Assembly: GCA_002789955.1 (NCBI GenBank)
Contig: PFUG01000420.1
Location: 11,569 to 75,568 of the forward strand
Direction: 5' to 3'
From: Deltaproteobacteria bacterium CG_4_9_14_3_um_filter_63_12
Lineage (GTDB): Bacteria; Myxococcota_A; Bradymonadia; UBA4248; UM-FILTER-63-12
DNA: 64,000 nt
A program made the position numbers and the translations under genes. This document shows positions 588 to 53,055 of this stretch, in pieces. Numbering within the stretch: position 1 is the first letter of the stretch; every line of letters begins with the position of its first letter. A model generated the notes under the pieces. It did no database searches and was not told the DNA's origin. It saw only the letters and a program-made list of their open reading frames with translations.

Positions 588-630
588 GCGCGCGTCGGAG
601 GTGAGGCTCACAAGCCCCAAGAAGAAGAAC

Positions 631-703
631 GATGGGATGTCGCGCGCTACTCGTCACGCCAGCCGCCTCGAAGCGAGCCAGCAGGTGTGCCTACGCGCGA
701 TCG
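631..703 (+). repeat. Copy A of a 70-75 bp palindromic intergenic repeat family (REP/MITE-like)
   Basis: gatgggatgtcgcgcgctactcg...gcctcgaagcgagccagc...cctacgcgcgatcg. It aligns with copies at 7929-7998, 31379-31450 and, inverted, 52906-52979. It has a central hairpin GGCTCG-AAG-CGAGCC and GCGCGC-rich imperfect terminal inverted repeats. Confidence 0.75.
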
Positions 704-3033: not shown

Positions 3034-3279
3034 GTCGTTCGTTCGAAGCGAAGAGCCCACGCGGACTTGCTCCACGTGGGCTCTTTCGTTTGCTGAGCAG
3101 AGCGCAAACGGGAAATCCTTTTGTGCTTGGCGGCGAACTCTTTTCTGTTCTGCTATACAGTTCTCATCTCGTTCTCGTTGCACAGCACACGAAGTGCCTA
3201 TCGACCTGCACAGTCCACGAACTCTTCTCACTCAGCGGCCCTCGAGAGTCCGAGCGCGGTACGGCCTGCAAGAAAACTC

Positions 3280-4374
3280 ATGACCCGATTGAACCCCACC
3301 TCTCTGGTCTCGCTCCTCGTCACCTTGTCGCTTCTCTTCTTGTATGCGTGCAGCGGCGGCGGGTTCAACGCGGGCGATTTTCGTGACCGAGCCGACCGAA
3401 AAGCCCTGCCAAAAGACGTCGTGCGTTCGCTTAAGCTGACCAAGTTCGCCAGCTTCACCTCGAACGATTCCCCCTCGCCGGCTTGGTCTCCGGACAGCGA
3501 GAGGCTGGTCTATTCCGAGCAGTATCCCGGGCGAGTGATCGTTTTTGACCTGGTCAGCCAGAGCAGCCGCACGATCTACGACGCCAGCACCGCGATGCTG
3601 CCCGACATTCAGTACAACGTCAGCCAGCCGGCGTTCTTGGGCAATCACTCGGTCATCACGACCGGGCTGTGGGGGGGCAGCATCAACTACACGGACGCTT
3701 GGACCGGCGCGATCCTCAGTGACGTGGACAACAGCACGAGCAAAGCTTTCGGCATCTCGGGCTCGAGAGCGCAGGTCAGCGCCGATGGCGATCGAGTGCT
3801 CTTCGAGGCCTCCGACGGGCTCATCCTCTCCGACGGCTCGGGACAGCGGCTCGACACCTACCCAAACCTCTATTACGCCCGTTGGGCCCCGCAAGGACGC
3901 CGTTTTGCCGCGCTGCGCTACGCCAATTATATGGGCGAAAGCCCGGAGCTCGTCATTGTCGACGAGGACAAGCAGATCGAGAAGCTCGAGGCGGGCGTCT
4001 TCCAGCTGGCCTGGGATCCGACTGGCGCCGGGTTGGCCTACATTCGCGCCGGCAACCGCACGGTTTTCGACGCCAACTGGGAGTTCGGAAGCCTCTCGTA
4101 CTACGAGTTCGAGACCAAGAAGACCACTGCGGTCGCCAGCCAAGCGCGCTCGCCGGTGTTCGGCGTCGCCCCGTGGGTCCTCTTCTACGAGACGGGGTCG
4201 GGCCTCGGCATCAGCGACCTGAACGAGAGCCGAGTCATGCGCGACCTTCGCCTGTCGAATATCACGGTCAGTCCAGATGGGCAGTACCTCTCGGGCGTCA
4301 CCGCGGCGAGCGGAAGCCCTTACGGTTACTACGGGGCCATGGACGTCACCATCTATTCCATTGGCTTGGAGTAG
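3280..4374 (+). CDS. TolB-like beta-propeller lipoprotein
   Basis: Start at the internal ATG gives signal peptide MTRLNPTSLVSLLVTLSLLFLYAC with a lipobox L-Y-A-C. Repeated WD40-like/TolB-like blades follow (SPDSERLVYSE, VSADGDRVLFEASDG, WDPTGAGLAY). Confidence 0.5.
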   Translation: MTRLNPTSLVSLLVTLSLLFLYACSGGGFNAGDFRDRADRKALPKDVVRSLKLTKFASFTSNDSPSPAWSPDSERLVYSEQYPGRVIVFDLVSQSSRTIYDASTAMLPDIQYNVSQPAFLGNHSVITTGLWGGSINYTDAWTGAILSDVDNSTSKAFGISGSRAQVSADGDRVLFEASDGLILSDGSGQRLDTYPNLYYARWAPQGRRFAALRYANYMGESPELVIVDEDKQIEKLEAGVFQLAWDPTGAGLAYIRAGNRTVFDANWEFGSLSYYEFETKKTTAVASQARSPVFGVAPWVLFYETGSGLGISDLNESRVMRDLRLSNITVSPDGQYLSGVTAASGSPYGYYGAMDVTIYSIGLE

Positions 4375-4390
4375 GCCCGCGAGGTCAGCA

Positions 4391-6499
4391 TTGAAGGTCT
4401 CGAAGTGGAGGTTCGTGGTCGTGGGTTTCGCCCTCTCGAGTCTCTGGGCTGCGCCCTACAGCGCGGCTCAGGAGCTGGAGTCCGTGCTGCCTGACGGGAT
4501 GTGGGTGGTGCCTCGTAACATCGACGAGGCGACCCTCTCGGTCCTCCCCGACGAGGAGTCCCTCGCCACCTACGAGGCCCTTGCAAACGAGGCCCTGGCG
4601 AGCCGCTCGCCGGAGCGACGCGCCTTGGGAACTTACGCGTTGGTGCAGATCGAGTGGGTGCGCGAAGTGACAAAGGCCAAGTCTTCGCTCCTGCTGGGCG
4701 AGCCCGTCGACGTGGCGGAGCCTGACTACAGCGCTGTGCGCGCGCGCTTTGTCGAGCTCTCATTGCCGGCGAAGGTCACCACTCTCGAGGAGGCTGGGCT
4801 GTCGATCGCCTTTGCCATCAGCGCCCAGGGGCATCCCGCAAACGAGGAGGCGGCGCGAGCGGCTCTCACGCGAGTCGTGGACAGCGACCTCGGCGCGCTG
4901 ACGGACGCCGCCGCCGTGGCACTGGTCCAGCTGACAGGGAGCTCCGACGAGGCGTTGCCCAAGAGTCCCGCGCCCGAGTATCGGCTCTTGCTCCTGCTGG
5001 CGGCGGCACGGATAGCCGACCAGAAGGGCAACAGCGCCCTGGCGGAGCGTCGCTACTTGGCTCTCCTCGACGCCATCGACGCAGACCTCGGGTGGAGCCG
5101 CATCTCGAGGAACTTACTGCGTGACATTGCGGTGCGCACCCTTGTGGCGGGAGCGAGAAAAGAGGCGGGCTGGGTACGTGGAGTGAGTCTCCTGGACGGG
5201 TTGCCCGAGGGGCTGGAGGGGGAGGTCCTGGACGGCGCGTTGAGCGCGTTGAGCGCCGAGCCGACGGGGGTCTTGGCCAGCAACGATGCGTTCCTGCATT
5301 TGCGCGCGGCCGAGGACGCGGAGCCTGCTCAAGCCGAAGCGCATCTCGAGGCCTCGGTGTCGGCTTTGGAGCAGCTGACGGATTTACAGAGCGCCGAGCT
5401 GTGCTCGACGCTGGCCGAGCAGAGCCGGCGGCGGTCTCTCGATGGCGCGGTCTTGGGCCGTGTGTTTGGCGGTTGCCTGAAGCGCCTCAGGGCCGCGACC
5501 GAGCTCGACTTGGCGGGGCGAATCGCGGTGATGGACGCCATCGACGGTCTGCGACCTGACGTCTTCGAGTCCGAAGATCATGCGCGCTACGGGTTGACGC
5601 TCTTGGCCGATGGTCAGGGGACGTTGGCCGTGGGCCATCTCGATCAGGTCGACATCGCCTTGCTCCCAGAGGCACTGCGTAACGAATTCGTGGTCGCCGC
5701 GGTGCGATTTCGCCACCAGTACAACTTGGACACCCATGTGGACAAGCTCTCGTGCTCGGGCCTGACAAAGAAGAGCCTGGTCGGGCTGGAGGGTCGCCTC
5801 GAAGAGTGGCTGAAGGTCGCCTTGGAGGTGACCAGCGGCGCCGAGCTCTACGAGATGCGGCGGATCGAGCTCGCGTTGTTGATGATGAAAGAGTCCTACG
5901 ACGAAGCGGCCGAGCGGATGGTCCCCTTCATCACGCTGGTGGACTCGCTCGACGACGACGGGATGCGCGACGAGCTCGTCATGGGACTGAGCGACCTGCT
6001 GGACTGCTTCGACCGCAGCGAGCGTTGGGACCTGTTGTCGCAGCTGACCCCTCTCCTGCGTGGGGAGCTCGACGAGGAGCTGCGGACGGCGCTCTTCGAC
6101 ATCGTCGGAAACCTCTTGATGGAGGCCAACCTGCGCTGGGTTGCGACGCTGACCTTGGTGGGGCGCGATGAGGAGGCGTTGGCGGTGCTGGTGACTCTGC
6201 AGCAGCAGTGGCGCCAGAATCCTGGAATGGCTCGGGCGGCCTTCTGGACGGCAGAGCTGATGTTCAAGGCCGGGCGCAACGAGGAAGCGGCGCACTACTA
6301 CCAACACGTCTTCGAGGAGTCCCCGGAGAGCGAGCTGGCGGACGACGCGTTGTTCGCGCTGGCCTCGATCTTCCTCGAGAGTGGCGATGTGAAATCCGCC
6401 GAGGAAGCGCTCGACCAAATCCTGTCGAACTACCCGGGTGGGAACTTTCCACAGCGTGCTTCTGTCTTGCTCGAGGGGCTCGAGGAAGCGGCGCCTTGA
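4391..6499 (+). CDS. Secreted TPR-repeat protein
   Basis: TTG start at 4391 with a GAGGT RBS 5 nt upstream. Signal peptide LKVSKWRFVVVGFALSSLWAAPYSAAQ. Alpha-helical repeats throughout, with clear TPR units at the C-terminus (AAFWTAELMFKAGRNEEAAHYYQHVF...ALFALASIFLESGDVKSAEEAL). Confidence 0.5.
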   Translation: MKVSKWRFVVVGFALSSLWAAPYSAAQELESVLPDGMWVVPRNIDEATLSVLPDEESLATYEALANEALASRSPERRALGTYALVQIEWVREVTKAKSSLLLGEPVDVAEPDYSAVRARFVELSLPAKVTTLEEAGLSIAFAISAQGHPANEEAARAALTRVVDSDLGALTDAAAVALVQLTGSSDEALPKSPAPEYRLLLLLAAARIADQKGNSALAERRYLALLDAIDADLGWSRISRNLLRDIAVRTLVAGARKEAGWVRGVSLLDGLPEGLEGEVLDGALSALSAEPTGVLASNDAFLHLRAAEDAEPAQAEAHLEASVSALEQLTDLQSAELCSTLAEQSRRRSLDGAVLGRVFGGCLKRLRAATELDLAGRIAVMDAIDGLRPDVFESEDHARYGLTLLADGQGTLAVGHLDQVDIALLPEALRNEFVVAAVRFRHQYNLDTHVDKLSCSGLTKKSLVGLEGRLEEWLKVALEVTSGAELYEMRRIELALLMMKESYDEAAERMVPFITLVDSLDDDGMRDELVMGLSDLLDCFDRSERWDLLSQLTPLLRGELDEELRTALFDIVGNLLMEANLRWVATLTLVGRDEEALAVLVTLQQQWRQNPGMARAAFWTAELMFKAGRNEEAAHYYQHVFEESPESELADDALFALASIFLESGDVKSAEEALDQILSNYPGGNFPQRASVLLEGLEEAAP

Positions 6500-6540: not shown

Positions 6541-6613
6541 AGCCAGCGACCGGAGTTGAACCGGTGACCTGCGCATTACGAATGCGCTGCTCTACCAACT
6601 GAGCTACGCTGGC
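6541..6613 (-). tRNA. tRNA-Thr (anticodon CGT)
   Basis: The reverse complement reads GCCAGCG-TA-GCTC-AGTTGGTA-GAGC-A-GCGCA-TTCGTAA-TGCGC-AGGTC-ACCGG-TTCAACT-CCGGT-CGCTGGC-T. This is a canonical cloverleaf with a 7-bp acceptor stem, GG in the D-loop, TTC in the T-loop, anticodon CGT, and no encoded CCA. Confidence 0.85.
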
Positions 6614-7123
6614 ACCCCAAAAGGCAGGACCGTCTAACATGAGTTTTCGGACGGGGTCAATACTTTCTCGTCTGTGCCTTCTGCGCGAAGCCTCCCTTTT
6701 TCGCAGGCGGGACAGACCCCTGCTCGGAGCAATGTTCAGGTCTCTCAATAATTTCGGAGAGCTGGACCGCAAGCTGCGAACCGCATCGACGTTTCTAGAG
6801 CGGATTCTAGACCGGAAGCGATACGGGTCACGTTGAAATGAGCGTTCAGCTTGCTCGCATGTGACGCGAGCTTCTCCTTCGAGTTCGTCATGGCTCAAGC
6901 CGAGCCGCTCGGCGAATGCTGCGCAACAAAAAGGCCAGCCGGGAAGGAGTATGAGGTCAGTAGAGGTTAATGCTCTCGTCGTTCGCACGAGAGCGCTTCA
7001 CCACGAGGCGTCCACCCTGCGGACGTCCTGATGCAGTCGACCACGAGCGGATCACACTGGCGCGCAGAGCCTTCTGTGTACGCTGGCGGGCGGTCGCGTG
7101 AGCGGTCGCTGGAGAGTCGCGCC

Positions 7124-7858
7124 ATGCACGAGCCACAAACCATCGAGTCGATATTTGACGTCGTCAGCTCGCTCCTAGACGAAGACGAGGTCTCACGCCT
7201 TTCTCATCTGCGCGAGCGATGCATCGAGCGCTTTGGACGGGTGGTGGGGAGGCTGCGAGTCGCCGAACAATTCGACCACTTCTTTTGGGGGAGTCGGGAG
7301 ACGGTTGAGCAGTGGCGAGAGCTCGACGAGCCTGGCCGGACACGTCGCATCCGTCAGTTTCGCAAGGCAATGGAATATCAGAGCCAAAGGATCAATCGAA
7401 GGGTCGAAATGGAGGCGCGACTGCAAGGTCTAGACGCCGTCAACGATGACGTGGCGCGGCTCCAGAAGGTGCAACGCGAGGCGGACGAGGGAGACAAGTT
7501 CTCGGTGGAGGGCTTCGTGATCCGCAAGCAACGCCCCATCAGCCGCGCTCAGTGTCCAGAGTATCGGCCCTGCCCTTACGTGAGTTGTCGCTACCATCTC
7601 TACCTCGATGTCACCCGAAGAGGCCGGCTACGCATCAACTTTCCAAACCAGAACGTGACTGACCTCGAGTCCACCTGCTCCCTCGACCTCGCCGCCCATG
7701 GGCCCAAGACCCTGGAACAGATCGGTGAGATCATGGGCGGGATCAGCCGGGAACGGGTGCGCCAAATCGAACAAGCCGCGCTGACGGCCCTCAAAGAGCA
7801 AGGAGAGGTGGAGCTGGCCGATTTCCTCTCCTCGTCATTCGAGGGCGAAGGCGACTGA
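7124..7858 (+). CDS. Sigma-70 region-4-like HTH protein with a Cys cluster (function unknown)
   Basis: ATG 7124 has a GGAGAG RBS 8 nt upstream. The C-terminal segment KTLEQIGEIMGGISRERVRQIEQAALTALK is a typical sigma-70 region 4 / LuxR-type HTH. It is preceded by CPEYRPCPYVSCRYH...C, and no sigma region 2 is present. Confidence 0.4.
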   Translation: MHEPQTIESIFDVVSSLLDEDEVSRLSHLRERCIERFGRVVGRLRVAEQFDHFFWGSRETVEQWRELDEPGRTRRIRQFRKAMEYQSQRINRRVEMEARLQGLDAVNDDVARLQKVQREADEGDKFSVEGFVIRKQRPISRAQCPEYRPCPYVSCRYHLYLDVTRRGRLRINFPNQNVTDLESTCSLDLAAHGPKTLEQIGEIMGGISRERVRQIEQAALTALKEQGEVELADFLSSSFEGEGD

Positions 7859-7928
7859 GGCGGTTGAGCCCGACGATGGGGTGTGCTATCGCTTCTGCCC
7901 CAGCAGGGACCTGCGCTCGCGTTTCATC

Positions 7929-7998
7929 GATCGGATTTCGCGCGCGACTCGGCACCGCAGCGGTCTCGAAGCGAGCCAGCTGCGGACCTACGCGCGAT
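7929..7998 (+). repeat. Copy B of the palindromic intergenic repeat family
   Basis: gatcggatttcgcgcgcgactcggcaccgcagcggtctcgaagcgagccagctgcggacctacgcgcgattgg. It lies between the region-4 protein gene and the mtnP-like gene. Confidence 0.75.
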
Positions 7999-8121
7999 TG
8001 GAATCGGATGGGCGCATTGGGCGTCTGAGCCCAACCTGGAAGGCCTACCCCGAAGCTCGCGCAACCCCTTTGGGTTACGCGACCGAGCGCAGAACGAAAC
8101 ACCCCAAGGAGCAGGACGACG

Positions 8122-8991
8122 ATGGAAGCGGTGCCTATTGGAATCATTGGTGGCAGTGGCTTGTACGACTTCGAAGGCTTGGAGGTCCTCGACGAGGTGT
8201 TCGTGGACACGCCTTATGGTCAGCCAAGTGACGCCATCCTCATCGCCAAATACGAAGGCCGCCGCGTCGCGTTTCTGCCCAGGCATGGCCGGGGACACCG
8301 CTACAACCCGACCAACGTTCCCTATCGCGCCAATCTGTGGGCCCTCAAAACGCTTGGTGTGTTCTGGTGCGTGACGGTGAGCGCGACAGGGAGCCTGCGG
8401 GAAGAGATCGTCCCCGGACACTTCGTGATTCCGGACCAGATCATCGATCGCACCTTCAAGCGCGCCAATACGTTTTTCGATGACATCGCTGTGCATGCAG
8501 GCTTCTCCTACCCCTTCGACCCAGTATTGCGTGCGGTGCTGATCAACGCCTGCAAGAGCACCCAAGACGTCGTCTTTCATGACGGCGGCACCTACGTCTG
8601 CATGGAGGGACCGCTCTTCTCGACCAAGGCCGAGAGCGCGCTGCATCGCTCGTGGGGCGCGTCGTTGATCGGCATGACCGCGGTGCCCGAAGCGAAGCTG
8701 GCCCGTGAGGCCGAGATGGCGTATGGGACCATCGCGCTCGCGACCGATTATGACGTGTGGAACGAAGACGATCACGTCAGCGTCGAGAGGGTCACCGAGA
8801 CGCTGCAGCGCAGCATCAAGCGAGTGCAGGACGTGCTCAAGACCGTGATCGCGACCGTCCCTTTGGGCGCGGAGGCGGAGAGCACCGCGAGCAAAGCCCT
8901 CGAGAACGCCATTATGACCGCTCCGAAGTATATCGATGACGAGATGTGGACGCGTTTGGAGTTGCTTATTTCCAAGTACGTCACTCGTTGA
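8122..8991 (+). CDS. mtnP: S-methyl-5'-thioadenosine phosphorylase
   Basis: 289 aa. N-terminal IGIIGGSGLYD, then PRHGRGHRYNPTNVPYRANLWALK and MTAVPEAKLAREAEMAY, the characteristic PNP/MTAP-family motifs. An AAGGAG RBS precedes the ATG. Confidence 0.85.
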   Translation: MEAVPIGIIGGSGLYDFEGLEVLDEVFVDTPYGQPSDAILIAKYEGRRVAFLPRHGRGHRYNPTNVPYRANLWALKTLGVFWCVTVSATGSLREEIVPGHFVIPDQIIDRTFKRANTFFDDIAVHAGFSYPFDPVLRAVLINACKSTQDVVFHDGGTYVCMEGPLFSTKAESALHRSWGASLIGMTAVPEAKLAREAEMAYGTIALATDYDVWNEDDHVSVERVTETLQRSIKRVQDVLKTVIATVPLGAEAESTASKALENAIMTAPKYIDDEMWTRLELLISKYVTR

Positions 8992-15730: not shown

Positions 15731-17359
15731 TCACTCGAGTGAAAGGTAGACCCACACAGCGCCTTCCCGTTCTTCCATCTCAACGATCGGGGTGGAGAAG
15801 CCGAACGGCACCGGAACCGCAAGGTGAATCAGGCGCTGAACGACCGCGGTGACAAGGTCTTCGACCAGCGTGTCGCCTTGAATCGCCGTGCCGACCTTCT
15901 CGAGCACCCCGTAATTGGCGCTCTCCACGTCCACATTGGCTTTGGCCACCTCGAAGCTCAGGAGACCGTCTCGAACGGAGGGCAGTGTGCCGATGTCGAG
16001 GCCCGAGACGATATCCGCGACCTCGATGAGGAGTCCTTCACTGTCGCCATAGAGCTCGAGTCGCACCCGAGGTAGGCCCCACCGGAGCTCGCCGGCCTCG
16101 ATAGACTGCAGCGAGAGGGCGCTCAAGGGCTGCAGCCGCAGGCGCCCCTCAGAAGCGAAGGAGAACTGGTCCATCAGGCCTAACCGAGGGGCGAGCGCGT
16201 TGAGGGTCGTGAGGCGGGTCTGGGCGCCGATGGGCAGATCGACGCAGAAGTAGCCAGAGGCCGTCGCCGTTTCCAACATCTGGTTGAAAAACCCTCGGTC
16301 GATTTGGATGAGCACGTCATAAGGCTCACCCATGGCGGTGAGCCTGGGAGCATCCGTTGCGCTCAGCGGCGTTGGAATCGCTGTGAAGAGCCCGTCGACG
16401 CTCGCCATACAATCGGCCGTTGGTCCTTTGACGGCGACGTCGAGAGCGAGCTTCAGCCCACTCTCGGCTCCAATCTCGAAGCCGCTTCCAGTCCAAGGGG
16501 GAAGCTCTGCAACTTGAGTCGCGAGCTGAACGGTTTGCGGCTCGAAGAATCCCTTTTGCAGGGGTAAGAGCAGGAAGCCGCCCTGTGGCAGTGCGAGTTC
16601 GTTGACGATCAAGGCCTGGAGCGCAGGGACGAACGTCTCTCGAGCCTGCTTGTCGAGGGCGTTCTCAAGGCGGGCATCCACGAACGCCCAGTCCACGCCA
16701 TCGAGATCGAAGGTGCAGGTCTCCCCTGCAGGCATGCCGTATGTGGTCGGGCTCTCCGGTGAGAACGTGCGCAGCTCGGTAGCCCAAGAGGGCAAAGTCC
16801 CGCTCATCGGAACCATGTCGAACTTCAGCTCGCGGGAAGCCAGCCCCAGGTCGACGCGGCAGATGTGGAAGTTTCCTTGTTGCGAAATGCGGACGACGGT
16901 ACGGACCGATTGTGCGCTGTATCGAATAGACACGTCGAGTGTCCCGTCCTCGGGCAAGAGCGCCAATGATTCTAGGGGGAAAGCGACATCAAGCGGACCA
17001 ATGACCAGTGTGGTGCCGTCTTCCAGGAGCTCCTCGATTGCGCCGCCTTCCCAAACCAGTCCGAAGCGCGCTCGGGATTGCGCAGGGAGTGCCATCGAGA
17101 TGGTTTCGAAGTACGAGGGCATGAGGTGGAAAGCCACCACGGACCCCGCTTCCCCCTCGAGACGAGCTCCGCTCGTAATTGGCCGGATTTCCGCGCGCTC
17201 ACACCCAGCCACGAACAGCCCCAGCGCCAAGACCAGCGCGGTGCACGAAAAGACCCCGCGGCACGCCGTCGGCCTGCTTCGAGCCAGCCCGGTGCGAAGC
17301 AGCGTGCGAGAGCCGCTCGAGTTGGACGTGTGGGTCGGGGTTGGGAAGGTGCTCTTCAT
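15731..17359 (-). CDS. Hypothetical lipoprotein
   Basis: N-terminal ...ALVLALGLFVAGC lipobox. No recognisable domain. Convergent with the kinase gene, 10 nt apart. Confidence 0.4.
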   Translation of the reverse strand: MKSTFPTPTHTSNSSGSRTLLRTGLARSRPTACRGVFSCTALVLALGLFVAGCERAEIRPITSGARLEGEAGSVVAFHLMPSYFETISMALPAQSRARFGLVWEGGAIEELLEDGTTLVIGPLDVAFPLESLALLPEDGTLDVSIRYSAQSVRTVVRISQQGNFHICRVDLGLASRELKFDMVPMSGTLPSWATELRTFSPESPTTYGMPAGETCTFDLDGVDWAFVDARLENALDKQARETFVPALQALIVNELALPQGGFLLLPLQKGFFEPQTVQLATQVAELPPWTGSGFEIGAESGLKLALDVAVKGPTADCMASVDGLFTAIPTPLSATDAPRLTAMGEPYDVLIQIDRGFFNQMLETATASGYFCVDLPIGAQTRLTTLNALAPRLGLMDQFSFASEGRLRLQPLSALSLQSIEAGELRWGLPRVRLELYGDSEGLLIEVADIVSGLDIGTLPSVRDGLLSFEVAKANVDVESANYGVLEKVGTAIQGDTLVEDLVTAVVQRLIHLAVPVPFGFSTPIVEMEEREGAVWVYLSLE

Positions 17360-25630: not shown

Positions 25631-26144
25631 CGGTCACCAATTCCTTACAGCACTTGTCCCAATGGACGCTGTGGCGGGTGCGGCCGAGTGTATCCAATGC
25701 CCCGGCAAGGTGCAACGCAGCCGCTCGCTCGCAGCGAGCTTGAAGTGCTGGCCAACGAAATTGCACTTTCTACCAGTGACCGTGCGGACAATGTGGCTCG
25801 CGCTCTCCCCGATGAGCCCGACCAGTTGCGCGACTGCGAACTCAGGCGGGGATGGAGATTCAACGTGTGTCTGGCAATAGATGCCCTCGACGACCTCGCT
25901 CTCCTTCCGTCTTGCCAGACTGCGAAAGACCTCTCCAAGTCCGCGTCGTCTCTACGAAAAGGCACTCCTCCCTGCACTTCGATGAACACGATGTGGTACT
26001 TGCACTCCCACCTACTGTGGGACAGACTCTTCCTGTCGTCCATGTGGACTCTCGGAATTCTTTTGCTGGCCGTTGACCGCCAGACAACGAAATCGCCGTG
26101 GTTGGCCGCTGAGAGATGTCAGTTACCTTTGAGAGTTCGTTCAC

Positions 26145-30048: not shown

Positions 30049-30427
30049 GGAAGACTGACCCGTGCGATGTCTTGGGCGATGGTTCGCTTGAACACGAGCG
30101 CAGGCACCCAAACTCGCCTGAGTCGAGGTTGGTGCCAGGAGGCGAGCGAACCCCGACCGCGCGTCGGCAGCTGGCTCGATTGTGACAGCGTGGTGCCTCG
30201 TGCGAGGTCTGCTCGACGACTAGCGCGAATCGGCGTTGGTTGTCACGGTCACCCAGCAGTGGGGTGGCGCCCACGTCGAAGGGCTCTTAGAGTCGTGGCC
30301 AGTCGCTGCAACAGTTGCGGAGCGAGGGAGCCCGCTCAGCGACGAAAATCGCGGCTTGATTCGCCAGGCGATGCACAGGCTCACCGAACTTGCCGGGGAG
30401 GGTGCCCCACGGCCGGCAAGAAAAACA

Positions 30428-31276
30428 ATGCACAGCAAACGCCCAAACTCGCCCCCCTTCGGGCTCTTTGCCTGCGACTTCGACGGGACACTGCTCGGCT
30501 CCGACCACCAGGTCTCCGAGCGCGACCGCAGGGCGCTCGAGTGCCTACGCACAAAGGGCGTCCTCGTCGTCGTCGCCACTGGCCGATCGTTGTTCTCCTT
30601 TCGACGCGCGGTCGTGCAGGAATTGCCGGTAGATTGGCTAGTCTTTTCCTCGGGAGCGGGCATCGCCCAGTGGCCTGTGTGTGAGGTTGTGCACGCCGTC
30701 CACCTCACGTGTGAAGAGACCGCGTCGATCGGTGCGCACCTCGAGCTCCTCAATGCGCCATATTGCGTCCACGACACGATCCCGAACAACCATAGGTTCA
30801 GCTATCAGCTCGGTCGCGACAGTGCAGACTTGAGACGTCGGATCGAACTCTACGCGCCCTTCTCTAGACCCTTGAGCGCTGATCGACTCGAGAAAGAGGC
30901 CACCCAAGTCATCGTGCACCTCGAGGAGCACGAGGCCGAAGCGGGCTGTCTAGCGCTGCGGGAGCACTTCGAGGACCTGGGGGTAATCCGGACCACTTCG
31001 CCGTTGGACCACTGCTCGACTTGGGTCGAGATCTTCCCGCGTGGCGTCTCCAAGAGCAGCGGTCTGCGCTGGCTCTGTGAGCATCTCAATGTCGCGCCGG
31101 CGAGGACTGGGGCCGTCGGGAACGACTACAACGACCTCGATATGTTGGAGTGGGTGGCTCATCCGTTCGTGGTTTCCAATGCCGCAGCGCCCCTGAGAGC
31201 GCGCTTTCAGGTCGTACGGAGCCACGACAGTGGAGGGGTCGCCGAGGCGGTCGAACGGTGGCTGGAGTCCCTCTGA
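30428..31276 (+). CDS. HAD-superfamily hydrolase, Cof-like (subfamily IIB) phosphatase
   Basis: Motif I FACDFDGTLL, motif II VVVATGRS, motif IV GNDYNDLDML. The ORF track offers an upstream start at 30236, but the conserved N-terminus begins at the ATG at 30428. Confidence 0.7.
   Translation: MHSKRPNSPPFGLFACDFDGTLLGSDHQVSERDRRALECLRTKGVLVVVATGRSLFSFRRAVVQELPVDWLVFSSGAGIAQWPVCEVVHAVHLTCEETASIGAHLELLNAPYCVHDTIPNNHRFSYQLGRDSADLRRRIELYAPFSRPLSADRLEKEATQVIVHLEEHEAEAGCLALREHFEDLGVIRTTSPLDHCSTWVEIFPRGVSKSSGLRWLCEHLNVAPARTGAVGNDYNDLDMLEWVAHPFVVSNAAAPLRARFQVVRSHDSGGVAEAVERWLESL
30474..30842 (+). repeat. Segmental duplication, copy 2 (intact HAD phosphatase 5' region)
   Basis: See 27932-28300. Confidence 0.8.
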
Positions 31277-31378
31277 GGCGTAGGACGTACGCAACAATTC
31301 CGCTCGTCAGGAATCTCCACTGGCGCTCTGGACTTGACCCTCGACCGGTTCTTGTGGGACTTGTTCTGCGAGCCGCCC

Positions 31379-31450
31379 GATCGGATTTCGCGCGCTACTC
31401 GGAACAGAGGGGGCTCGAAGCGAGCCATCTCGCGTCCCTACCCGCGATCG
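31379..31450 (+). repeat. Copy C of the palindromic intergenic repeat family
   Basis: gatcggatttcgcgcgctactcggaacagagggggctcgaagcgagccatctcgcgtccctacccgcgatcg. Intergenic, between the HAD gene and the amidohydrolase gene. Confidence 0.75.
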
Positions 31451-31628
31451 ACGGCTCATTGTTTGTCATTCCGGGCGAAAGTAGAGCGTGTTGCCCATGT
31501 TGCTGGGCGGCCGACGGTTCGGCATCCGAAAGGCGCACACAGTAGGCCGACGAGCGAGCCACGTGGCTCTTGGATTCTAGATGCGCACCGGATTGACTGA
31601 GCTCCCTCTATCGACAAAGGCGACCGTC

Positions 31629-32843
31629 ATGTCCTCCGAAAACACCCTCATTGGCCCAGATCGAGACGGCAACTATCTGCAAACCGAAGGCTCGAAGATT
31701 CGCACCTTTGGTCCGAGTCCGAGCTCGGTCGAGGGCGCCGTCTCCTGTCCGGACGGACAACTCAAGCCCGGTCGGGTGTGTGCCCACACTCATCTCTACT
31801 CGGGACTTGCCCCCTTGGGTTTGCCGGCGCCGGAAATCGCGCCCGAAAACTTCGTGCAGATCCTGGAGCGCGTGTGGTGGAGACTCGACCGTGCACTCGA
31901 CGCCCGTTCGCTCGACGCCTCGGCACGCTACTACATCGCCAACGCCTTGCTCGATGGCACAACCAGCCTCGTCGATCACCACGAATCCCCCAACTTCATC
32001 GAGGGTTCTCTCGACGTCTTGGGGACCGCTTGCACGGAGTTGGGGATGCGTGCGGCGCTCTGCTTCGGAGCCACTGAGCGCAACGGCGGCGTGGTAGAGG
32101 GACGTCGCGGTCTGGCTGAGTGCGCGCGTTTCGTGAAGTCCAACCACCATCCCCTGCTGAGAGGGCTGGTCGGGCTCCATGCCTCGTTCACCGTCTCGGA
32201 CTCCTCTATCGAAGAGGCGGGACGTCTGTGTCGCGAGCTGGGGGTGGGGATGCACATCCACGTGGCCGAAGCCGACTCAGACGTCGCTGACGCCAAAGAG
32301 CGCGGCTACGAAAGCCCATTCGACAGGCTGGTCGAGTTGGGAGGGCTGCCGCCGCGCTCTGTCCTCGTGCATGGCGTTCACGCCACTCGAGAGCAGGTCC
32401 TGCACGGCGAGAAGCTTGGCGCCTGGTGGGTCCACAACCCTCGGTCGAACAAGGGCAACCGCGTGGGTTATGCGAGCGCCTTGTCCGCGGCCAACGACGT
32501 CGCGCTCGGCACAGATGGCTATCCCGCCAAGATGCTCGAGGAGCAACAGGCCCTCTTCGAGGAGGCCGAGGCGGCGGGCGACAGCCTTTCGAAAGTAAAG
32601 AGCCGACAAGAAAACGGCGCGAAGATGGTCGGAATGCTCTTCGACCTGCCGCTCGGCCAGCTCGTACCTGGCGCTGCGGCCGACGTCATCGTTGAAGGGG
32701 AGAACGGGGTCATGCACGTGCTGGTCGACGGAGAGTGGGTGGTCCGCGATGGGCGTCTAGTCAACGCCGACCTCGCCGCCATTAAAGAGGCTGCGGAGCA
32801 GGAAGCTCCTCGTCTCTGGTCCCTCATGGCCACCTACCAATGA
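31629..32843 (+). CDS. Amidohydrolase-superfamily protein (MtaD/SsnA-like deaminase/chlorohydrolase family)
   Basis: N-terminal metal-binding HxH (VCAHTHLYSGL), then HIHVAEADSD, VHGVH and GTDGYP, matching the binuclear-metal amidohydrolase fold. The substrate cannot be assigned. Confidence 0.6.
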   Translation: MSSENTLIGPDRDGNYLQTEGSKIRTFGPSPSSVEGAVSCPDGQLKPGRVCAHTHLYSGLAPLGLPAPEIAPENFVQILERVWWRLDRALDARSLDASARYYIANALLDGTTSLVDHHESPNFIEGSLDVLGTACTELGMRAALCFGATERNGGVVEGRRGLAECARFVKSNHHPLLRGLVGLHASFTVSDSSIEEAGRLCRELGVGMHIHVAEADSDVADAKERGYESPFDRLVELGGLPPRSVLVHGVHATREQVLHGEKLGAWWVHNPRSNKGNRVGYASALSAANDVALGTDGYPAKMLEEQQALFEEAEAAGDSLSKVKSRQENGAKMVGMLFDLPLGQLVPGAAADVIVEGENGVMHVLVDGEWVVRDGRLVNADLAAIKEAAEQEAPRLWSLMATYQ

Positions 32844-35656: not shown

Positions 35657-37210
35657 TCAGAACGCGTACAGACCTTTGACGAAGATCGTGTTCGCGCCAG
35701 CCGTCCGGTTGCCGAACTTCGAGTCTTTGTCTCCGCCGTGCAGCAGCGCTCCTGCGACGAGCTCGGTGTTCTGCCAGAACTTGAACGCCAGCTGCGGGAA
35801 CACAATGAAGCTCTCGTCCTGCACCTGGATGATGCCGAAGAGTCGGAGGAGCACTTGCTCGTCGAAGGTCTTGAAGTCGCTGCCGGCGACGATGTAGTCC
35901 GACAAGAACTCGGACCCAAACTCGTCGATGAAGCCGTGTAGATACTGAACGTTGAGGTACCACCACTTGGTGATGGTGTAGTCCATGCCAGCGGTGAGCT
36001 TCCAGAACTTGCCGGGTCGGACCTGGACCTCCTCAGATTCCATGACGTCGCCGATGATCAAGTCCATGTTGACCCCGTCGTGGTAGGTCATCGCGAACTC
36101 CGCCCACAGGCCCAACCCGCCGAGCATGTCGATACTCGTTGACAGGTCGGCGCCGACTACCCGGACCTCTGGATAGACGAGCGTGATCTCGGTGGCGATG
36201 GTGATACCTGGACCAACGATTCCCGGGAGGTCGAGGAGCTTCATGAGTCCTTCGATGTCGTTGCGGAGAGTGTCCTCGAAGTCGTCGAACAGACCAAAGA
36301 GCCCGTCGTCGGTCACGAAGTCGCGGCCAGGCTGCGTGTTGTGGTCGTAGCCTTTGTAGGCCATGACGCCTAGATCGAGCCCCAACAGCGTGAACGAGAG
36401 CCGCCCGCCTAGCTGAGTGTTCTCGAGTAGAGCTTCGGGCTCCTTCACGTTCACGTCGTACACAACGGCCCCGCCCTTCTCGAGGAACTTCTCCTGCACA
36501 TCGATGAGGTTGTTGATCAGCGGCGAGCGCACGAACCGCCCGAACTGCGAGGGTTCCGAGAAGACCAGCAGTGCGCTGTCCGGGATCAGACCTGAGCGAA
36601 ACTTTGGAATCGCCACCAGCATCAAGGTGGGCTCTGCGAAGATGGGGGCCTCGTCTCCCTCGACCATCCAGTCCGGACTGATGTTCACCACGACCATTTC
36701 GTTTGCGACTTGGCGGCCAAAGTCCAGCGGGTCCTCAAGGTCATAACCATTGAGAACGCTGGTCGGATTGAACATGTCTGCGGTGCCCCACTTGATGATC
36801 TGACGACCCAGTCGAATGTCGATGCCCTCGACGACGACATCCGAAACCTCGACGTACAGCGAGTCGCTCTCGAGGTAGTAGGGATCGACCTTGGGCCGAG
36901 ATTGGAGGTCTTCCATGCCCTGCACCTCCGAGCGCCCACTGAACACCAACGCCATGTCCGCGACCGCCTGGACGGAACCCCATGTGAAGCTCGCCACAAA
37001 TTGTGCGAGGTTGTCGGTGCGTCCAAAGGCATACTCCGGCGAATCGCTCGGCTTATCATTGCCAGGGATGGAGGCCCGCAGGTCGCTTTGCACATGACCA
37101 CGATATTCTATGTCCGTCTGCGCGAAGGCTGGCTTCGAGCCGAGCAGGCAGGCGGCGAGCAGAAAAACTTTCAGCACGGCAGGCATCGTCGTGCGAAATT
37201 GAAGACGCAT
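35657..37210 (-). CDS. Putative outer-membrane beta-barrel protein (DUF1302-like)
   Basis: Signal peptide MRLQFRTTMPAVLKVFLLAACLLGSKPAFAQ. Alternating amphipathic beta-strand pattern. C-terminal ...FVKGLYAF with a terminal aromatic residue typical of OM barrels. Co-directional with the downstream LolA-like and RND genes. Confidence 0.45.
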   Translation of the reverse strand: MRLQFRTTMPAVLKVFLLAACLLGSKPAFAQTDIEYRGHVQSDLRASIPGNDKPSDSPEYAFGRTDNLAQFVASFTWGSVQAVADMALVFSGRSEVQGMEDLQSRPKVDPYYLESDSLYVEVSDVVVEGIDIRLGRQIIKWGTADMFNPTSVLNGYDLEDPLDFGRQVANEMVVVNISPDWMVEGDEAPIFAEPTLMLVAIPKFRSGLIPDSALLVFSEPSQFGRFVRSPLINNLIDVQEKFLEKGGAVVYDVNVKEPEALLENTQLGGRLSFTLLGLDLGVMAYKGYDHNTQPGRDFVTDDGLFGLFDDFEDTLRNDIEGLMKLLDLPGIVGPGITIATEITLVYPEVRVVGADLSTSIDMLGGLGLWAEFAMTYHDGVNMDLIIGDVMESEEVQVRPGKFWKLTAGMDYTITKWWYLNVQYLHGFIDEFGSEFLSDYIVAGSDFKTFDEQVLLRLFGIIQVQDESFIVFPQLAFKFWQNTELVAGALLHGGDKDSKFGNRTAGANTIFVKGLYAF

Positions 37211-37379
37211 ATTATCCTTGTTCCAGTGCTCTTTCGTTCTGTATTGAGAGGATTCGGCGCGACGGCGAGCCAAAAACGCTTGACGGAGTCAGCATCCACC
37301 GGCGAGTTTCCTCGCCTTTGCGCCGCAGCTGGAGTGGCATGGCGCAACGACCGATTTCAGCCGATGAACACCATCCGCC

Positions 37380-37428
37380 GAGAACTACACTCCGTCGGGA
37401 ACTACTCCCCGTCGAGAACTACTAATGG
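37380..37428. promoter_or_regulatory. Three tandem imperfect direct repeats in a divergent promoter region
   Basis: GAGAACTACACTCCGTCG / GGAACTACTCCCCGTCG / AGAACTACTAATGG. It sits between the divergent OM-barrel gene (start 37210) and the Hsp33-like gene (start 37545). Confidence 0.35.
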
Positions 37429-37544
37429 AAGGCCGATCGAACCGCAACGAGCCGCCCACATGTGAGCTTGTTTGTGCATTGCGACGGTGAGCGACGTCAC
37501 TTTGAGACGATGCTGGCATTTCTGACCTATCACGAGAGAAGACC

Positions 37545-38321
37545 TTGAGTACGACCGACAATCGCATCGCGCATTTCAAACGCTACCTGTGGGCGGAGCC
37601 CCAGCTCACCGTGGTCGTCGGGTCCGGTGAAGCCCTCGAGAGAGGGTGGATGGACTACGTCCAGGAGCATTCCGTCGATGAGGATGCACCGGAAGCCGCG
37701 CCCCAGATCCCTCGGCTCATCGTAGGCGCAGCGCTGGCGCTGGTGTCCTCTCCCACGCGGGAGTCTTGGGGCTGGACGCTGACGCTCAAGGATGAGCCCT
37801 ACGGCTTCTTCTGTGGCGCCGAGCCCGAAGGCATGCTCTGCGCCTCGACCCGGAAAGCCGACGCGGCCAACGCGGCGATGTCCCTGCAGAGACAGGTCAC
37901 GCCGCAGAGCATCTTGCGACAGAGCAACTACACTCCGCAGCAGTCCGATCCCCTGAGCGCCATCGAGGATTATTTTCGCTTTGCGGAGCAAATCGTCACT
38001 CGGATGGGCTGTGACGCTCGAGGACGCGCGGCGCTGTTCCAATCGTTGCCCGGCGGAGATTTCTCCCAGATTCGTCCTCTGAGTGAGGACGAGCTCGTCG
38101 AGCTCGCCTGGTCGCTGGAGAGCGCCGGAGCGCTCAAACGTCTCGACGAGATGATCCTATTCTACGCCTGTCGCTGTAACGACGAGGCCATCTTGAACAT
38201 GCTCACGTCGCTGCCCGACGAGTCCCGCAAGGAGCTCTGGGGCGACGAGAAGAAGCTCAAGATCGATTGCCCGAGGTGCAGTCGAACCTACGTCGTCGAG
38301 CGACACCACCAACTGAATTGA
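37545..38321 (+). CDS. hslO: Hsp33-family redox-regulated chaperone
   Basis: C-terminal zinc centre FYACRCNDEAILNMLTSLPDE...KIDCPRCSRTY (CxC...about 30 aa...CxxC), matching the Hsp33 redox switch. The overall length (258 aa) is slightly short for the family. Confidence 0.55.
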   Translation: MSTTDNRIAHFKRYLWAEPQLTVVVGSGEALERGWMDYVQEHSVDEDAPEAAPQIPRLIVGAALALVSSPTRESWGWTLTLKDEPYGFFCGAEPEGMLCASTRKADAANAAMSLQRQVTPQSILRQSNYTPQQSDPLSAIEDYFRFAEQIVTRMGCDARGRAALFQSLPGGDFSQIRPLSEDELVELAWSLESAGALKRLDEMILFYACRCNDEAILNMLTSLPDESRKELWGDEKKLKIDCPRCSRTYVVERHHQLN

Positions 38322-38386
38322 ACCGAGAGGGAACTCGCTTGTTGCGCGCATCTTGCGCGCAACCCTGCGGGTTGTTCGGCTCAGCC

Positions 38387-39172
38387 TCAGATGCCACGCA
38401 GCAGCCAGCGTCGTGAGAACGTCGAGTCAGGCACCTCCTGGTCGACCGCCTCGTCGAGCACCTCGTTCTGGGTCGTGTGCTTGGCCGCCACGTCGGTCAT
38501 CGTCACGCGTGTGTAGATCAGGTGCTCGCCGCCAAGTTTCTTGGGCTCGAAGCGCTCCTGGAGTTTTACCATCTCGCCGCCGTCGTCGTAGTACTCGATG
38601 CGGTCGATGAGGATGTAGGCCTTGTCGATCCGCAGCTTGAGTTTCGGATACTGAAGGTCCACGCCGTCCCGACGGGTGCACTCCAGAAAGATGTAGGCGC
38701 CAGTGGTCTCATCCGCGAGGATCCTGGCGCTGAAGTCTTTGCCCAGGCGAATCATCGACATCTCGTCGAAGTTCCAGTCCGAGCTTTGAAAGCTCTGGCG
38801 TTTGGCGTGCGCGCCAACCCGTCTGACCTTTCGCATGTCCGGGAGCTTCACGTAGATATCGTCTCGGCCTTTGATGACAACGCCCATGCCCTTCATGTCA
38901 GCCGGCTCTTCGAAGGAAATCGCCCTGAGGTTATCTCCCTTCGTGATCGTCTGGAAGGTATATTGGTTCCCGTCGTTGCCGCCTCCTAGAAGGGTCATGC
39001 GGACCGTGATCGTCTGGTCCTCGAAGGGGTTGTGGCGCTTATCTGCCTCTTCGAGAAGGGCGTCCCCGCCCTTGGCGACCAGAGCGTCGAGAGACGGATC
39101 GGGCTCCCCCGCTTGTACCGGCGACGGAGTGAGGAGATTAACGAGAAATACGGCGGGGATAAACCACTTCAT
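38387..39172 (-). CDS. LolA-like outer-membrane lipoprotein-sorting family protein (partner of the RND exporter)
   Basis: Signal peptide MKWFIPAVFLVNLLTPSPVQA. Size, composition and position (26 nt downstream of a COG1033-type exporter) fit the LolA-fold proteins that accompany MMPL/HpnN-type transporters. Confidence 0.45.
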   Translation of the reverse strand: MKWFIPAVFLVNLLTPSPVQAGEPDPSLDALVAKGGDALLEEADKRHNPFEDQTITVRMTLLGGGNDGNQYTFQTITKGDNLRAISFEEPADMKGMGVVIKGRDDIYVKLPDMRKVRRVGAHAKRQSFQSSDWNFDEMSMIRLGKDFSARILADETTGAYIFLECTRRDGVDLQYPKLKLRIDKAYILIDRIEYYDDGGEMVKLQERFEPKKLGGEHLIYTRVTMTDVAAKHTTQNEVLDEAVDQEVPDSTFSRRWLLRGI

Positions 39173-39197
39173 AGGAAAACCTCTAGTCCTCTTTGGG

Positions 39198-42161: not shown

Positions 42162-42367
42162 CTGTTCCCTCGTCGTCGCTCAACGCCACAGGAGCTTTGC
42201 CCCCTCTTAGCGGTTTTTGGGCGGAACATCATCCTTTTTGCGCCGGTTGGAGAACCTAGCCGCGGGCGGCGGCAGGCGTCGTTCTTGATGTTGCGCGGGG
42301 AATGGCGCACTCTTGGCCCCCAAGGCAAGGGCCCCCGGCGATTGGGTGCGGGGTCTGGAGGATTTCG

Positions 42368-43105
42368 ATGCGCACCGGGAATCGCCACTCTTTATGGTTG
42401 CTCGCGTTCGTCGCGCTGTTCACGGGTTGTCGAGTGGCCCCAAACGCGGCGGAACCCGATCGTGAGCGGGCGGCGGGCGGCGAGATTGAGCACGAGCAGT
42501 CCCTCGTCCCTGTCGACACAATGGGCCCCCCTGGCGGCTTTGATGTCAGCGCGCTGCAAACTCGCTACACCAAGGACATCCCCGGCGAAGGCCGCCTCTA
42601 TGTCACTTTCCTCACCTCGGCGGGCAAGCTCCAATGTCTCCTGCATGAAGAGGAGGCACCACGAACGGTCGACAATTTCGTCGGACTCGCACGGGGTTTG
42701 AAGACTTGGACCGACCCCGCGAGCAAAGAACCCGTCAAACGCCCCTTCTATGATGGGTTGAGTTTCCACCGGGTGGTCCCCAATGTGCTCATTCAGACCG
42801 GCGATCCGACCAACAGCGGTGTGGGGCACCCAGGCTTTACCATCGACGACGAGTTCGGGGCTGGGCTGGAACACGACAGCGCGGGGGTCATGGCGATGGC
42901 ACAAAGTCGTCCCAACGGCTCCGGAAGTCAATTCTACATCACGGATTCGCCGACCCCCCAATTCGACGGGCGCTATCCCATTTTTGGGCACTGCGAAGAT
43001 CTCGACGTGATTCACAAGATTGCAGCAGCCGCGCTCACCGAGGGCACCGTCGATCGCCCCCTCGACCCCATACGAATCGAGTCCTTGAGCTTCGAACGAC
43101 GATGA
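42368..43105 (+). CDS. Cyclophilin-type peptidyl-prolyl cis-trans isomerase, lipoprotein
   Basis: GGAGG RBS 5 nt before the ATG at 42368. Signal + lipobox LLAFVALFTGC. Cyclophilin core motifs FHRVVPNVLIQTGDP, MAMAQSRPNGSGSQFYIT and FGHCEDLDVIHKI. Confidence 0.8.
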   Translation: MRTGNRHSLWLLAFVALFTGCRVAPNAAEPDRERAAGGEIEHEQSLVPVDTMGPPGGFDVSALQTRYTKDIPGEGRLYVTFLTSAGKLQCLLHEEEAPRTVDNFVGLARGLKTWTDPASKEPVKRPFYDGLSFHRVVPNVLIQTGDPTNSGVGHPGFTIDDEFGAGLEHDSAGVMAMAQSRPNGSGSQFYITDSPTPQFDGRYPIFGHCEDLDVIHKIAAAALTEGTVDRPLDPIRIESLSFERR

Positions 43106-43408
43106 CGATCGACTTGCATCGAGCCCTAGTGCGGGTTACTGATCGTGTCAGTCCATTCAAGTTTGGGTGTTCCTAGCTGTCCGACGAGCTCTTCGGCTCC
43201 CGAGAGTCGCTTGTCGGACTCTTCATTGGTCGGTTACGAACCAGCGTCGGCCGCTCTGCCGCCTCTATCCCTTCGTGGTTCGCGGTGGACGCGAGAGATA
43301 GCCTGAGGAGTCCTCGTTCATGTGGACTCACGATGGTTTTGCGGATGAGTACCGTTCCCAGACACCGCTCTCGAGTTCGCTCCTTTCTTGAAGCGTTGGA
43401 GGATGCCC

Positions 43409-43783
43409 ATGCAACCCAATCTCAAAGTTCTTGGTCAAAAAGTACGCGACGCCCGCCACAACATGGGCCTCACTCAGCAGCAGCTTTCCGAGCGAGTGGA
43501 CTGCTCGCCAGAGTGGATCTCCAAGATCGAGCGAGGCCGTGCCAGCCCATCCCTGAGCTGCATCAACACCATCGGCCATATTCTGGGCGTCGACCTGACG
43601 GTCCTTTTGTCGGCCGAAAGAGCGCAGAGCGAGGTGGACGTCGAGGGGAGGGTCGAGTACGCGACCAGTCTGGTCAGGGCGCTGAACGACGACTACCAAG
43701 GCACCGCGATCTACCTCATCGAAGCCCTATTGAGACGCCAACGTGAGCTCGAGTTCAGGTCCGAAATCGCCGAGGTCTCTTGA
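43409..43783 (+). CDS. XRE-family HTH transcriptional regulator
   Basis: LGQKVRDARHNMGLTQQQLSERVDCSPEWISKIERGRASPSLSCINTIGHILGV is a Cro/C1-type HTH. GGAGG is 6 nt upstream of the ATG at 43409. Confidence 0.6.
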   Translation: MQPNLKVLGQKVRDARHNMGLTQQQLSERVDCSPEWISKIERGRASPSLSCINTIGHILGVDLTVLLSAERAQSEVDVEGRVEYATSLVRALNDDYQGTAIYLIEALLRRQRELEFRSEIAEVS

Positions 43784-43795
43784 GCTGGATGGAGC

Positions 43796-44173: not shown

Positions 44174-44298
44174 GTCCGCAGGGTCCTTCGTTCATGGGTG
44201 ATTGGGAACCGCGCGAAGTGTATGGCTTGCGATTCGAAAGTGTCAACCCGTGCATGGCTCCCTACATGTGCTCCCTATGACTCTGGCGAGGGTTCGCC

Positions 44299-45531: not shown

Positions 45532-45588
45532 AGCGAGCCTCTGGCTCCCTACCACCAGATTATAGGCGTGGCCTTGGGGGCTTGTTTG

Positions 45589-46806: not shown

Positions 46807-46980
46807 AGGCTCGTTCTTAGTCGTGTTGAAACGCACAGAGACAGAGGTCAGGTCGCAAACCTGATGTCCATTTTGACGATCGACATCTCGAGTCGCGGAA
46901 TGTCCTCGTCCTCGCTGGGTGAGCCAAAGAAAACAGGGTGAACTGGAGTCCACCCTGTTCGAGATTCGCAAGCCGTGGGG

Positions 46981-52979: not shown

Positions 52980-53055
52980 TCCGATTGGCGAAGTATAGAG
53001 CGCCCCTGCGAAGCGGGTCAATGGCGCTCCCAGCCCCATTCCTCGCGTGCAGGCC

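Follow-up and report, generated by a model that had tools for sequence, protein, structure and literature searches.

A dispersed palindromic repeat of 72-76 nt with REPIN-like features in an uncultivated Myxococcota-like lineage

The window (the whole stretch of DNA analysed here, 64,000 nucleotides in length) carries four copies of a short palindromic repeat, each located between two protein-coding genes. The first copy lies between a UDG-family gene, which ends at position 587, and a thiolase gene (1063-2502), and it contains a G.T wobble within its middle stem CACGCC/GGTGTG. The second one, referred to below as the focal copy, separates the gene of a sigma-70-type factor (7031-7858) from that of an MTA phosphorylase (8122-8991), and the third one separates a HAD-type hydrolase gene (30236-31276) from an amidohydrolase gene (31581-32843). 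The fourth copy, which is on the minus strand, is located between a NIF3 gene (53056-53811, minus strand) and a gene encoding a 935-aa BNR/sortilin-repeat protein (50082-52889, minus strand); it ends 26 nt ahead of the ATG of the latter and 15 nt ahead of its AGGAGG. An additional, degenerate match contains the 5' arm and the central hairpin, lacks the 3' arm, and falls within the first ~35 codons of an open reading frame (15731-17359, minus strand). It may be a decayed copy, either absorbed into this gene or lying just upstream of it, or it may be a chance match. The features are as follows:

630-703, plus strand: copy of the repeat, 74 nt (58.4 bits)
7928-8000, plus strand: focal copy, 73 nt (66.2 bits)
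17261-17320, minus strand: degenerate partial match (17.5 bits, E = 0.0015)
31378-31450, plus strand: copy of the repeat, 73 nt (77.3 bits)
52916-52987, minus strand: copy of the repeat, 72 nt (69.0 bits)

An earlier sequence-only reading of this DNA had reported four copies, and all four exist: direct reading and alignment reveal one conserved unit of 72-76 nt, and the similarity among the four breaks off sharply at either end. The 20-mer GGATTTCGCGCGCTACTCGG, searched with up to three mismatches, occurs within the 64 kb only at the four copy sites (0.01 matches expected), and the central 13-mer CTCGAAGCGAGCC matches exactly at all four, with 6 matches when up to one mismatch is allowed (0.45 expected). 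In an nhmmer search with a 78-position profile HMM built from unrelated copies, the window copies scored 58-77 bits (E = 1e-16 to 1e-22). The coordinates proposed earlier are within 1-2 nt of the true extents for the first three copies, but the fourth had been placed at 52906-52979, which is ~8-10 nt off. Similarly, the gaps had been described as convergent or co-directional and as 100-450 bp long; all four are co-directional and none is convergent, and their sizes are 166-475 bp. The perfect central hairpin GGCTCG-AAG-CGAGCC that had been assigned to the element is present in the 31378 copy only, the other three having CTCG-AAG-CGAG with a mismatch below. GGCTCG is nevertheless the majority form across the family, and the 31378 copy is the nearest of the four to the commonest subfamily (GGAACAGAGG..GGCTCG).

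The repeat is not limited to the window. An exact-pattern scan of JGI metagenomes retrieved 88 loci, all of them from one sample series (L-numbers below are labels of retrieved loci), and an nhmmer search of the window and 90 loci gave 144 matches, which, once their flanks had been used to remove duplicates, correspond to ~70 distinct sites scoring at least 40 bits. The wider search therefore found far more than the original four copies, with 40 loci of the strict pattern coming from one assembly, and the similarity spans the whole 72-76 nt unit, with the 3' arm that lies outside the search pattern, rather than the GC-rich core alone; neither of the two outcomes named earlier as refuting the repeat family was obtained. 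One Crystal Geyser population (MAGs CG2_30_63_29 and CG_4_9_14_3_um_filter_63_12) accounts for the contigs of all ~70 sites, CG-named MAGs being, by naming convention, genomes from the Crystal Geyser aquifer. The site has been described previously (PMC6792436). Exact-protein matches assign the window contig to the MAG Deltaproteobacteria bacterium CG_4_9_14_3_um_filter_63_12, which belongs to the same population as CG2_30_63_29 (MNYG01000079.1; assembly GCA_001873925.1), and the best named relatives of the MTA phosphorylase encoded in the window are from Myxococcota/Bradymonadia (60-67% identity). In one assembly, 40 loci with a total of 356,667 bases contained 14 copies beyond the retrieving ones, i.e., ~1 per 25 kb, and the 82-kb home contig contains 4 copies. 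At a density of one copy per ~20-25 kb, a genome would contain a few hundred copies.

Outside this population, neither the 185,579 reference genomes nor the viral contigs yielded a genuine copy when scanned with the exact pattern. The single reference match, in an Acidobacteriaceae MAG, was rejected as a chance one, as it is inside a coding region and its similarity ends with the pattern. The Rfam search of the focal region, with gathering thresholds as well as at E <= 10, gave no match to the element, the sole Rfam match in the window being a tRNA gene (6541-6613, minus strand, 71.6 bits), and our literature search found no account of such repeats in Myxococcota. The family is lineage-specific. 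It adds a new member to the well-known small selfish DNA repeats and does not represent a new kind of biology.

A single strand of the unit can fold as one long imperfect hairpin. From the outside inward, this hairpin comprises the terminal inverted CGATCG/CGATCG, a GGATTT bulge, a 7-bp GC stem TCGCGCG/CGCGCGA, an asymmetric junction (CTACTC vs CTA), an inner stem of 16-18 bp, and an AAG loop. The ends of the element are CGATCGGATTT...CGCGATCG, and its core has ~70% G+C. The positions of these parts in the focal copy are as follows:

7928-7933 / 7995-8000, plus strand: terminal inverted CGATCG / CGATTG
7938-7944 / 7991-7997, plus strand: outer stem TCGCGCG/CGCGCGA
7951-7988, plus strand: inner hairpin, with the AAG loop at 7969-7971
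7988-7991, plus strand: CTAC foot

The pairing was assessed in 51 distinct copies. With the named structure, 87% of cells were paired, as compared to 24-46% with slid partners, and the covariation score was 0.083 vs 0.049 for shuffled alignments, with none of 500 shuffles as high. At the inner pair 37-55, for instance, 24 copies have CG and 20 have GC, and the middle of the inner stem differs among subfamilies with the pairing retained. Judging from these comparisons, the long hairpin is retained through compensatory changes, the number of independent covariation events being few, since most of the signal comes from a few subfamily-defining changes. The folding energies of the window copies (z = -2.3 to +1.1) are unremarkable given their G+C content, and thus the support for the structure comes from the kept pairing and not from stability. 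The retrieval pattern fixes TCGCGCG..ACTCG and CTCGAAGCGAGCC, so that the 5' arm and the loop look more invariant than they are; the 3' arm (CCTACGCGCGATCG) is well conserved though it lies outside this pattern, and the mean pairwise identity in columns outside the pattern is 72%. Mismatches on the strand as given are 63 A.C vs 20 G.T, which indicates that the wobble-compatible strand is the complementary one. It is this strand that bears GTAG, the complement of the CTAC found at the 3' foot in 34 of the 51 copies (67%) and at the 5' foot in 26 of them. The CTAC/GTAG motifs are direct, not inverted, and are partly paired in the full hairpin.

The sense strand of the element is open in all three frames, and four of the six frames are open in total. 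The related peptides that the sequence-only reading had noticed in translations of the copies, and had rightly considered spurious, are explained by the lack of stop codons in these three sense frames. The same property explains how an insertion into a gene could be tolerated, as in the verified case described below. The earlier description of the element as strictly intergenic holds for the window copies, but not for the family, in which at least one copy elsewhere is within a coding sequence. Overlap with a gene call was seen at only 9 of 57 sites, mostly due to start-codon over-extension, and one intragenic copy was verified. This copy (L021, 418-490) is inside a long open reading frame, the third-position GC periodicity of which is unbroken and the product of which is 100% identical to P0121, a 906-aa GlmS-like SIS-domain amidotransferase of CG2_30_63_29. 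It corresponds to exactly a 22-residue in-frame insertion, SIGVRAPLGTEQARSEPAASPR, in the variable linker of the protein, and this insertion is missing from all 11 aligned GlmS-like homologues (62-67% identical, 867-897 aa). Its absence from the homologues shows that the element is, or was, mobile at the DNA level. Another copy (L020, 205-276, minus strand) continues the reading frame of a Ser/Thr kinase (Pkinase domain, aa 21-275) in the C-terminal region, with coding periodicity on either side, and is probably a second intragenic insertion. A third candidate open reading frame, in L046, gave zero homologues in the protein search.

The comparison of flanks of 51 unique copies did not reveal a target-site duplication: the best diagonal had a z of ~3.2 among thousands of offsets, and no diagonal abutted the ends. 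Deviations from CGATCG at the two termini are uncorrelated (13 identical 5-mers vs 11.0 in permuted data), and hence these terminal motifs are part of the element itself rather than copies of a target sequence. The lack of target-site duplication means that the element is without a defining feature of DDE-mobilised MITEs, and it fits single-strand transposition of the HUH/Y1 type, as in REP/REPIN-RAYT systems and IS200/IS605. Of the two labels that had been offered for the repeat, REP-like or MITE, the REP/REPIN-like one fits better, and that of a classical MITE is unlikely to hold.

The gene of a REP-associated tyrosine transposase (RAYT, a Y1/HUH enzyme of family PF01797) is as a rule present once per genome and has REPs of its own on either side. 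A RAYT or other Y1 transposase was looked for in the window and the loci. None of the 5,709 six-frame open reading frames from ~0.74 Mb (the window and 90 loci) matched E. coli RayT in a phmmer search at E <= 10, a scan of the same frames for the HUH...YxxNP motif gave 0 matches, and none of the open reading frames read by eye in gene-call gaps beside copies was transposase-like. As the sample is probably less than 10% of the genome and the query was a single sequence, this negative result carries little weight against a RAYT.

The sites are shared by different assemblies. Those at 31378 and 52916 are identical and occupied in 10 other assemblies each, and those at 630 and 7928 are occupied in 3 assemblies each (L112-L114); the 7928 copy is identical in L112-L114 and in L002. 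The four window sites thus showed neither insertion nor excision polymorphism in these other assemblies (10, 10, 3, and 3), and the search for empty sites found no region orthologous to the window among the pattern-derived loci. Copies of the family are mutually ~20-30% divergent, which, together with the identity of the sites across assemblies, indicates that the family is old.

Taken together, these results make it highly probable that the repeat is a multi-copy DNA element, devoid of coding capacity, which has inserted at many unrelated places of one lineage, once in frame in a gene, without target-site duplication. One alternative origin is that of a classical MITE, i.e., a deletion derivative of an insertion sequence, the terminal inverted repeats of which are recognised by a DDE transposase. 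The element is indeed small, non-coding, and numerous, its terminal inverted repeats (CGATCG...CGATCG and TCGCGCG...CGCGCGA) are clear, and several MITE families with in-frame gene insertions are known (PMC10969869). However, a duplication of 2-8 bp was seen neither at nor near the ends of the 51 unique copies, the terminal CGATCG motifs vary independently of each other, and a non-systematic reading of the ~0.74 Mb of loci did not bring up any transposase gene whose ends match, and we consider such an origin unlikely. The in-frame insertion in the amidotransferase gene, verified against homologues, the probable second case in the kinase gene with its unbroken codon periodicity, and the stop-free sense frames (with four of six frames open) bring to mind another possibility: a module like the Rickettsia palindromic elements (RPEs), with coding sequence as its main niche, selected as translatable, and with its way of spreading left unspecified. 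We regard it as a long shot, since among ~70 sites there are only one verified and one or two candidate intragenic copies, the others being intergenic, and the L046 candidate is without any homologue; besides, 74 nt of high G+C can be expected to lack stops by chance, and the sequence is unrelated to the AT-rich RPEs.

Two further possibilities start from the placement of the window copies, all four of which are in the sense orientation in co-directional gaps, 41-101 nt past the upstream stop codon and from 26 to 358 nt ahead of the next start codon. Such placement, as well as the hairpin kept through compensatory changes and the fixation of the sites in the population, would fit a structure selected by the host, with its spread being secondary, whether as a stabiliser, attenuator, or processing site at mRNA 3' ends, or as DNA bound by gyrase or a nucleoid protein, a role proposed for E. 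coli BIMEs. At the 48 family sites with both neighbours called, however, orientations are mixed: co-directional gaps hold 19 sense and 11 antisense copies, divergent gaps hold 12, and convergent ones 6 (these counts use start-trimmed gene calls). The sense placement of all four window copies is therefore compatible with chance. Also, there is no bias of orientation relative to the strand of flanking genes, no favoured distance to stops or starts family-wide, and one copy lies within a coding sequence. A terminator was tried as the identity of the element and rejected, as the GC-rich hairpin is without a U-tract: no T-run follows any of the four window copies, and the terminator scan found none in the element. 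The folding energies are unremarkable at this G+C content, and the wobble asymmetry points to the strand which, in the window, is the antisense one at all four sites. Selection by the host as the primary cause thus seems improbable, slightly more so than a MITE origin. A cis-regulatory RNA (a riboswitch, a leader, or a protein-binding element of a 5' UTR) was considered due to the same four sense placements, in each of which the next gene follows on the same strand, to the conserved structure, and to the copy that is 26 nt ahead of an ATG, beside a Shine-Dalgarno sequence. The family-wide orientation counts ruled out a riboswitch or leader, 17 of the 48 copies being antisense to the downstream gene. 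Flanking genes throughout the family have unrelated functions, as have the genes downstream of the window copies (thiolase, MTA phosphorylase, amidohydrolase, and BNR-repeat protein), the distance to the start codon varies between 26 and 358 nt, copies occur in tandem arrays and in a coding sequence, Rfam is blank even at E <= 10, and there is no genuine match elsewhere in 185,579 species. A regulatory RNA therefore has hardly any probability left.

We are thus confident that the repeat is a dispersed, non-autonomous, palindromic mobile element. That it belongs, more specifically, to lineage-specific small interspersed repeats of the REP/REPIN kind, with an occasional RPE-like behaviour, is in our view the likeliest reading, with about even odds, and that it was spread by a RAYT-like or IS200/IS605-type HUH/Y1 enzyme is a tentative proposal, which falls a little short of even. 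According to this proposal, the enzyme, which would be specific to single strands and act in trans, would have distributed the copies by recognising the hairpin and the GTAG-like foot of the complementary strand, and the family would by now be old and nearly quiescent. Effects on neighbouring genes, such as those of a hairpin in read-through mRNA or of a copy 26 nt before a start codon, would be by-products and not the reason for which the element exists.

The likeness to known REPINs is considerable, the 72-76 nt unit lying within the ~70-110 nt of their replicative units. Published REPINs are symmetric hairpins of ~71 bp with conserved ends and compensatory changes, and they depend on RAYT (PMC3116915); the substrate of the E. 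coli RAYT consists of GTAG and an imperfect hairpin (PMC3479197). As in REPIN/REP sequences, i.e., the GI-GIII groups of P. fluorescens and the REP/BIME of E. coli with TnpA-REP, the elements described here are short imperfect palindromes, mostly extragenic, present in tens to hundreds of copies (PMC3116915, PMC3479197, PMC5581495). They share with them the single long hairpin of ~70 nt, with conserved ends and a middle that is paired via compensatory changes, and may share a GTAG-like motif at the hairpin foot, which is 67% conserved here. They also share the occurrence in tandem or inverted clusters, the lack of target-site duplication, the restriction to a lineage, and the old age and slow movement. 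In our sample, head-to-tail pairs with a common terminal CGATCG were found in L004, L008, L012, and L087, and adjacent inverted pairs in L065, L038/L071, and L070. In contrast to REPIN/REP systems, no cognate RAYT was found within ~0.74 Mb, the hairpin tip, and not the ends alone, seems to be the most conserved part (partly a matter of ascertainment), the host is an uncultured Myxococcota-like bacterium and not a gamma-proteobacterium, and at least one copy is in a gene. Moreover, the two CTAC/GTAG motifs are direct and partly paired here, unlike in a textbook REPIN.

Other systems resemble the repeat in part. As in the case of RPEs, a palindrome lies in frame within a gene and adds a peptide in a variable region, leaving the frame intact (PMC10969869). 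However, RPEs are ~100-150 bp long, AT-rich, predominantly intragenic, and characteristic of obligate intracellular alpha-proteobacteria, whereas the unit described here has 72-76 bp, a core of ~70% G+C, and only a small minority of intragenic copies. MITEs, such as Correia of Neisseria and ERIC/IRU, are likewise small, dispersed, and non-coding, have terminal inverted repeats, and are sometimes co-transcribed or located in genes; unlike in MITEs, target-site duplication was tested and is absent here, and no parent insertion sequence was seen in ~0.74 Mb. The IS200/IS605-derived palindrome-associated elements (PATEs) also lack target-site duplication and have a subterminal hairpin recognised on single-stranded DNA, which is what we propose here. 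PATEs are, however, longer and have two distinct end hairpins, left and right, whereas our unit is a single symmetric hairpin. A far bolder possibility, to which we assign little probability, is that the repeat was mobilised by something that is neither a RAYT nor a DDE transposase, and was possibly shaped for translatability, seeding peptide insertions as RPEs do in Rickettsia. The first part is suggested by the sequence analysed, in which neither a transposase nor a target-site duplication was seen, and the second by the three open sense frames. If true, 'selfish DNA inside proteins' would have arisen a second time, independently, in a free-living Myxococcota-like host.

The repeat extends REPIN-like elements to an uncultivated subsurface Myxococcota-like lineage, and provides one clean example of a repeat tolerated in frame, in the GlmS-like amidotransferase. 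It leaves the current understanding of such elements unchanged, and would be of greater interest only if a complete genome turned out to be without a Y1 transposase. Practically, the copies are an annotation hazard, since their sense strand, open in all three frames, gives rise to spurious open reading frames. As the exact pattern is confined to one metagenome series, apart from the one chance reference match in a gene, the repeat can be used as a sequence signature for contigs of the Crystal Geyser population. It also appears to break or chimerise metagenome contigs. In the 1.4-kb contig L017, for example, the 5' flank of one site is joined to the 3' flank of another (by comparison with L062 and L040), which indicates either an assembly chimera or true recombination across repeat copies.

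Several minor observations were made in the course of the analysis. The cumulative GC skew of the window rises at 4-36 kb and falls at 36-60 kb, and the strands of genes converge there, so that the region ~36000-47000 could be a replication-terminus-like switch. The four window copies track the polarity of the skew; the wider sample shows no such rule, as copies are oriented with positive local skew in 25 cases and with negative skew in 28. In addition, a second, unrelated repeat of ~75-85 nt, with the consensus GGAATTCTTTTGCTGGCCGTTGACCGCCAGACAnCGAAATCGACGTGGTTGGCCGCnGAGAGA, was identified by sequence similarity at no fewer than five distinct loci (75-90% identity). It had no Rfam match and was not consistently upstream of co-oriented genes. 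Its locations are as follows:

window 26051-26136, plus strand: GGAATTCTTTTGCTGGCCGTTGACCGCCAGACAnCGAAATCGACGTGGTTGGCCGCnGAGAGA repeat
L029, 6973-7058: GGAATTCTTTTGCTGGCCGTTGACCGCCAGACAnCGAAATCGACGTGGTTGGCCGCnGAGAGA repeat
L062, 3357-3441: GGAATTCTTTTGCTGGCCGTTGACCGCCAGACAnCGAAATCGACGTGGTTGGCCGCnGAGAGA repeat
L079, 2656-2718: GGAATTCTTTTGCTGGCCGTTGACCGCCAGACAnCGAAATCGACGTGGTTGGCCGCnGAGAGA repeat
L074, 7282-7361: GGAATTCTTTTGCTGGCCGTTGACCGCCAGACAnCGAAATCGACGTGGTTGGCCGCnGAGAGA repeat

Local duplications were found beside two copies of the palindromic repeat: in L045 (~3200-3270), five tandem decamers TCGCGAGGTT directly adjoin a 5'-truncated copy, and in L024 (~4050-4700), a gene-call gap beside a partial copy contains an internal duplication with the repeated peptide ...ETLRVIQEMR.... 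Finally, orthologues of the BNR/sortilin-repeat gene downstream of the 52916 copy (L093, L096, L098, L100, and L117) were called as 723-aa proteins starting ~640 nt later (424 aa in L100, due to the contig end), which suggests that strains differ in the start of this gene or by a frameshift, with the 52916 element itself unchanged.
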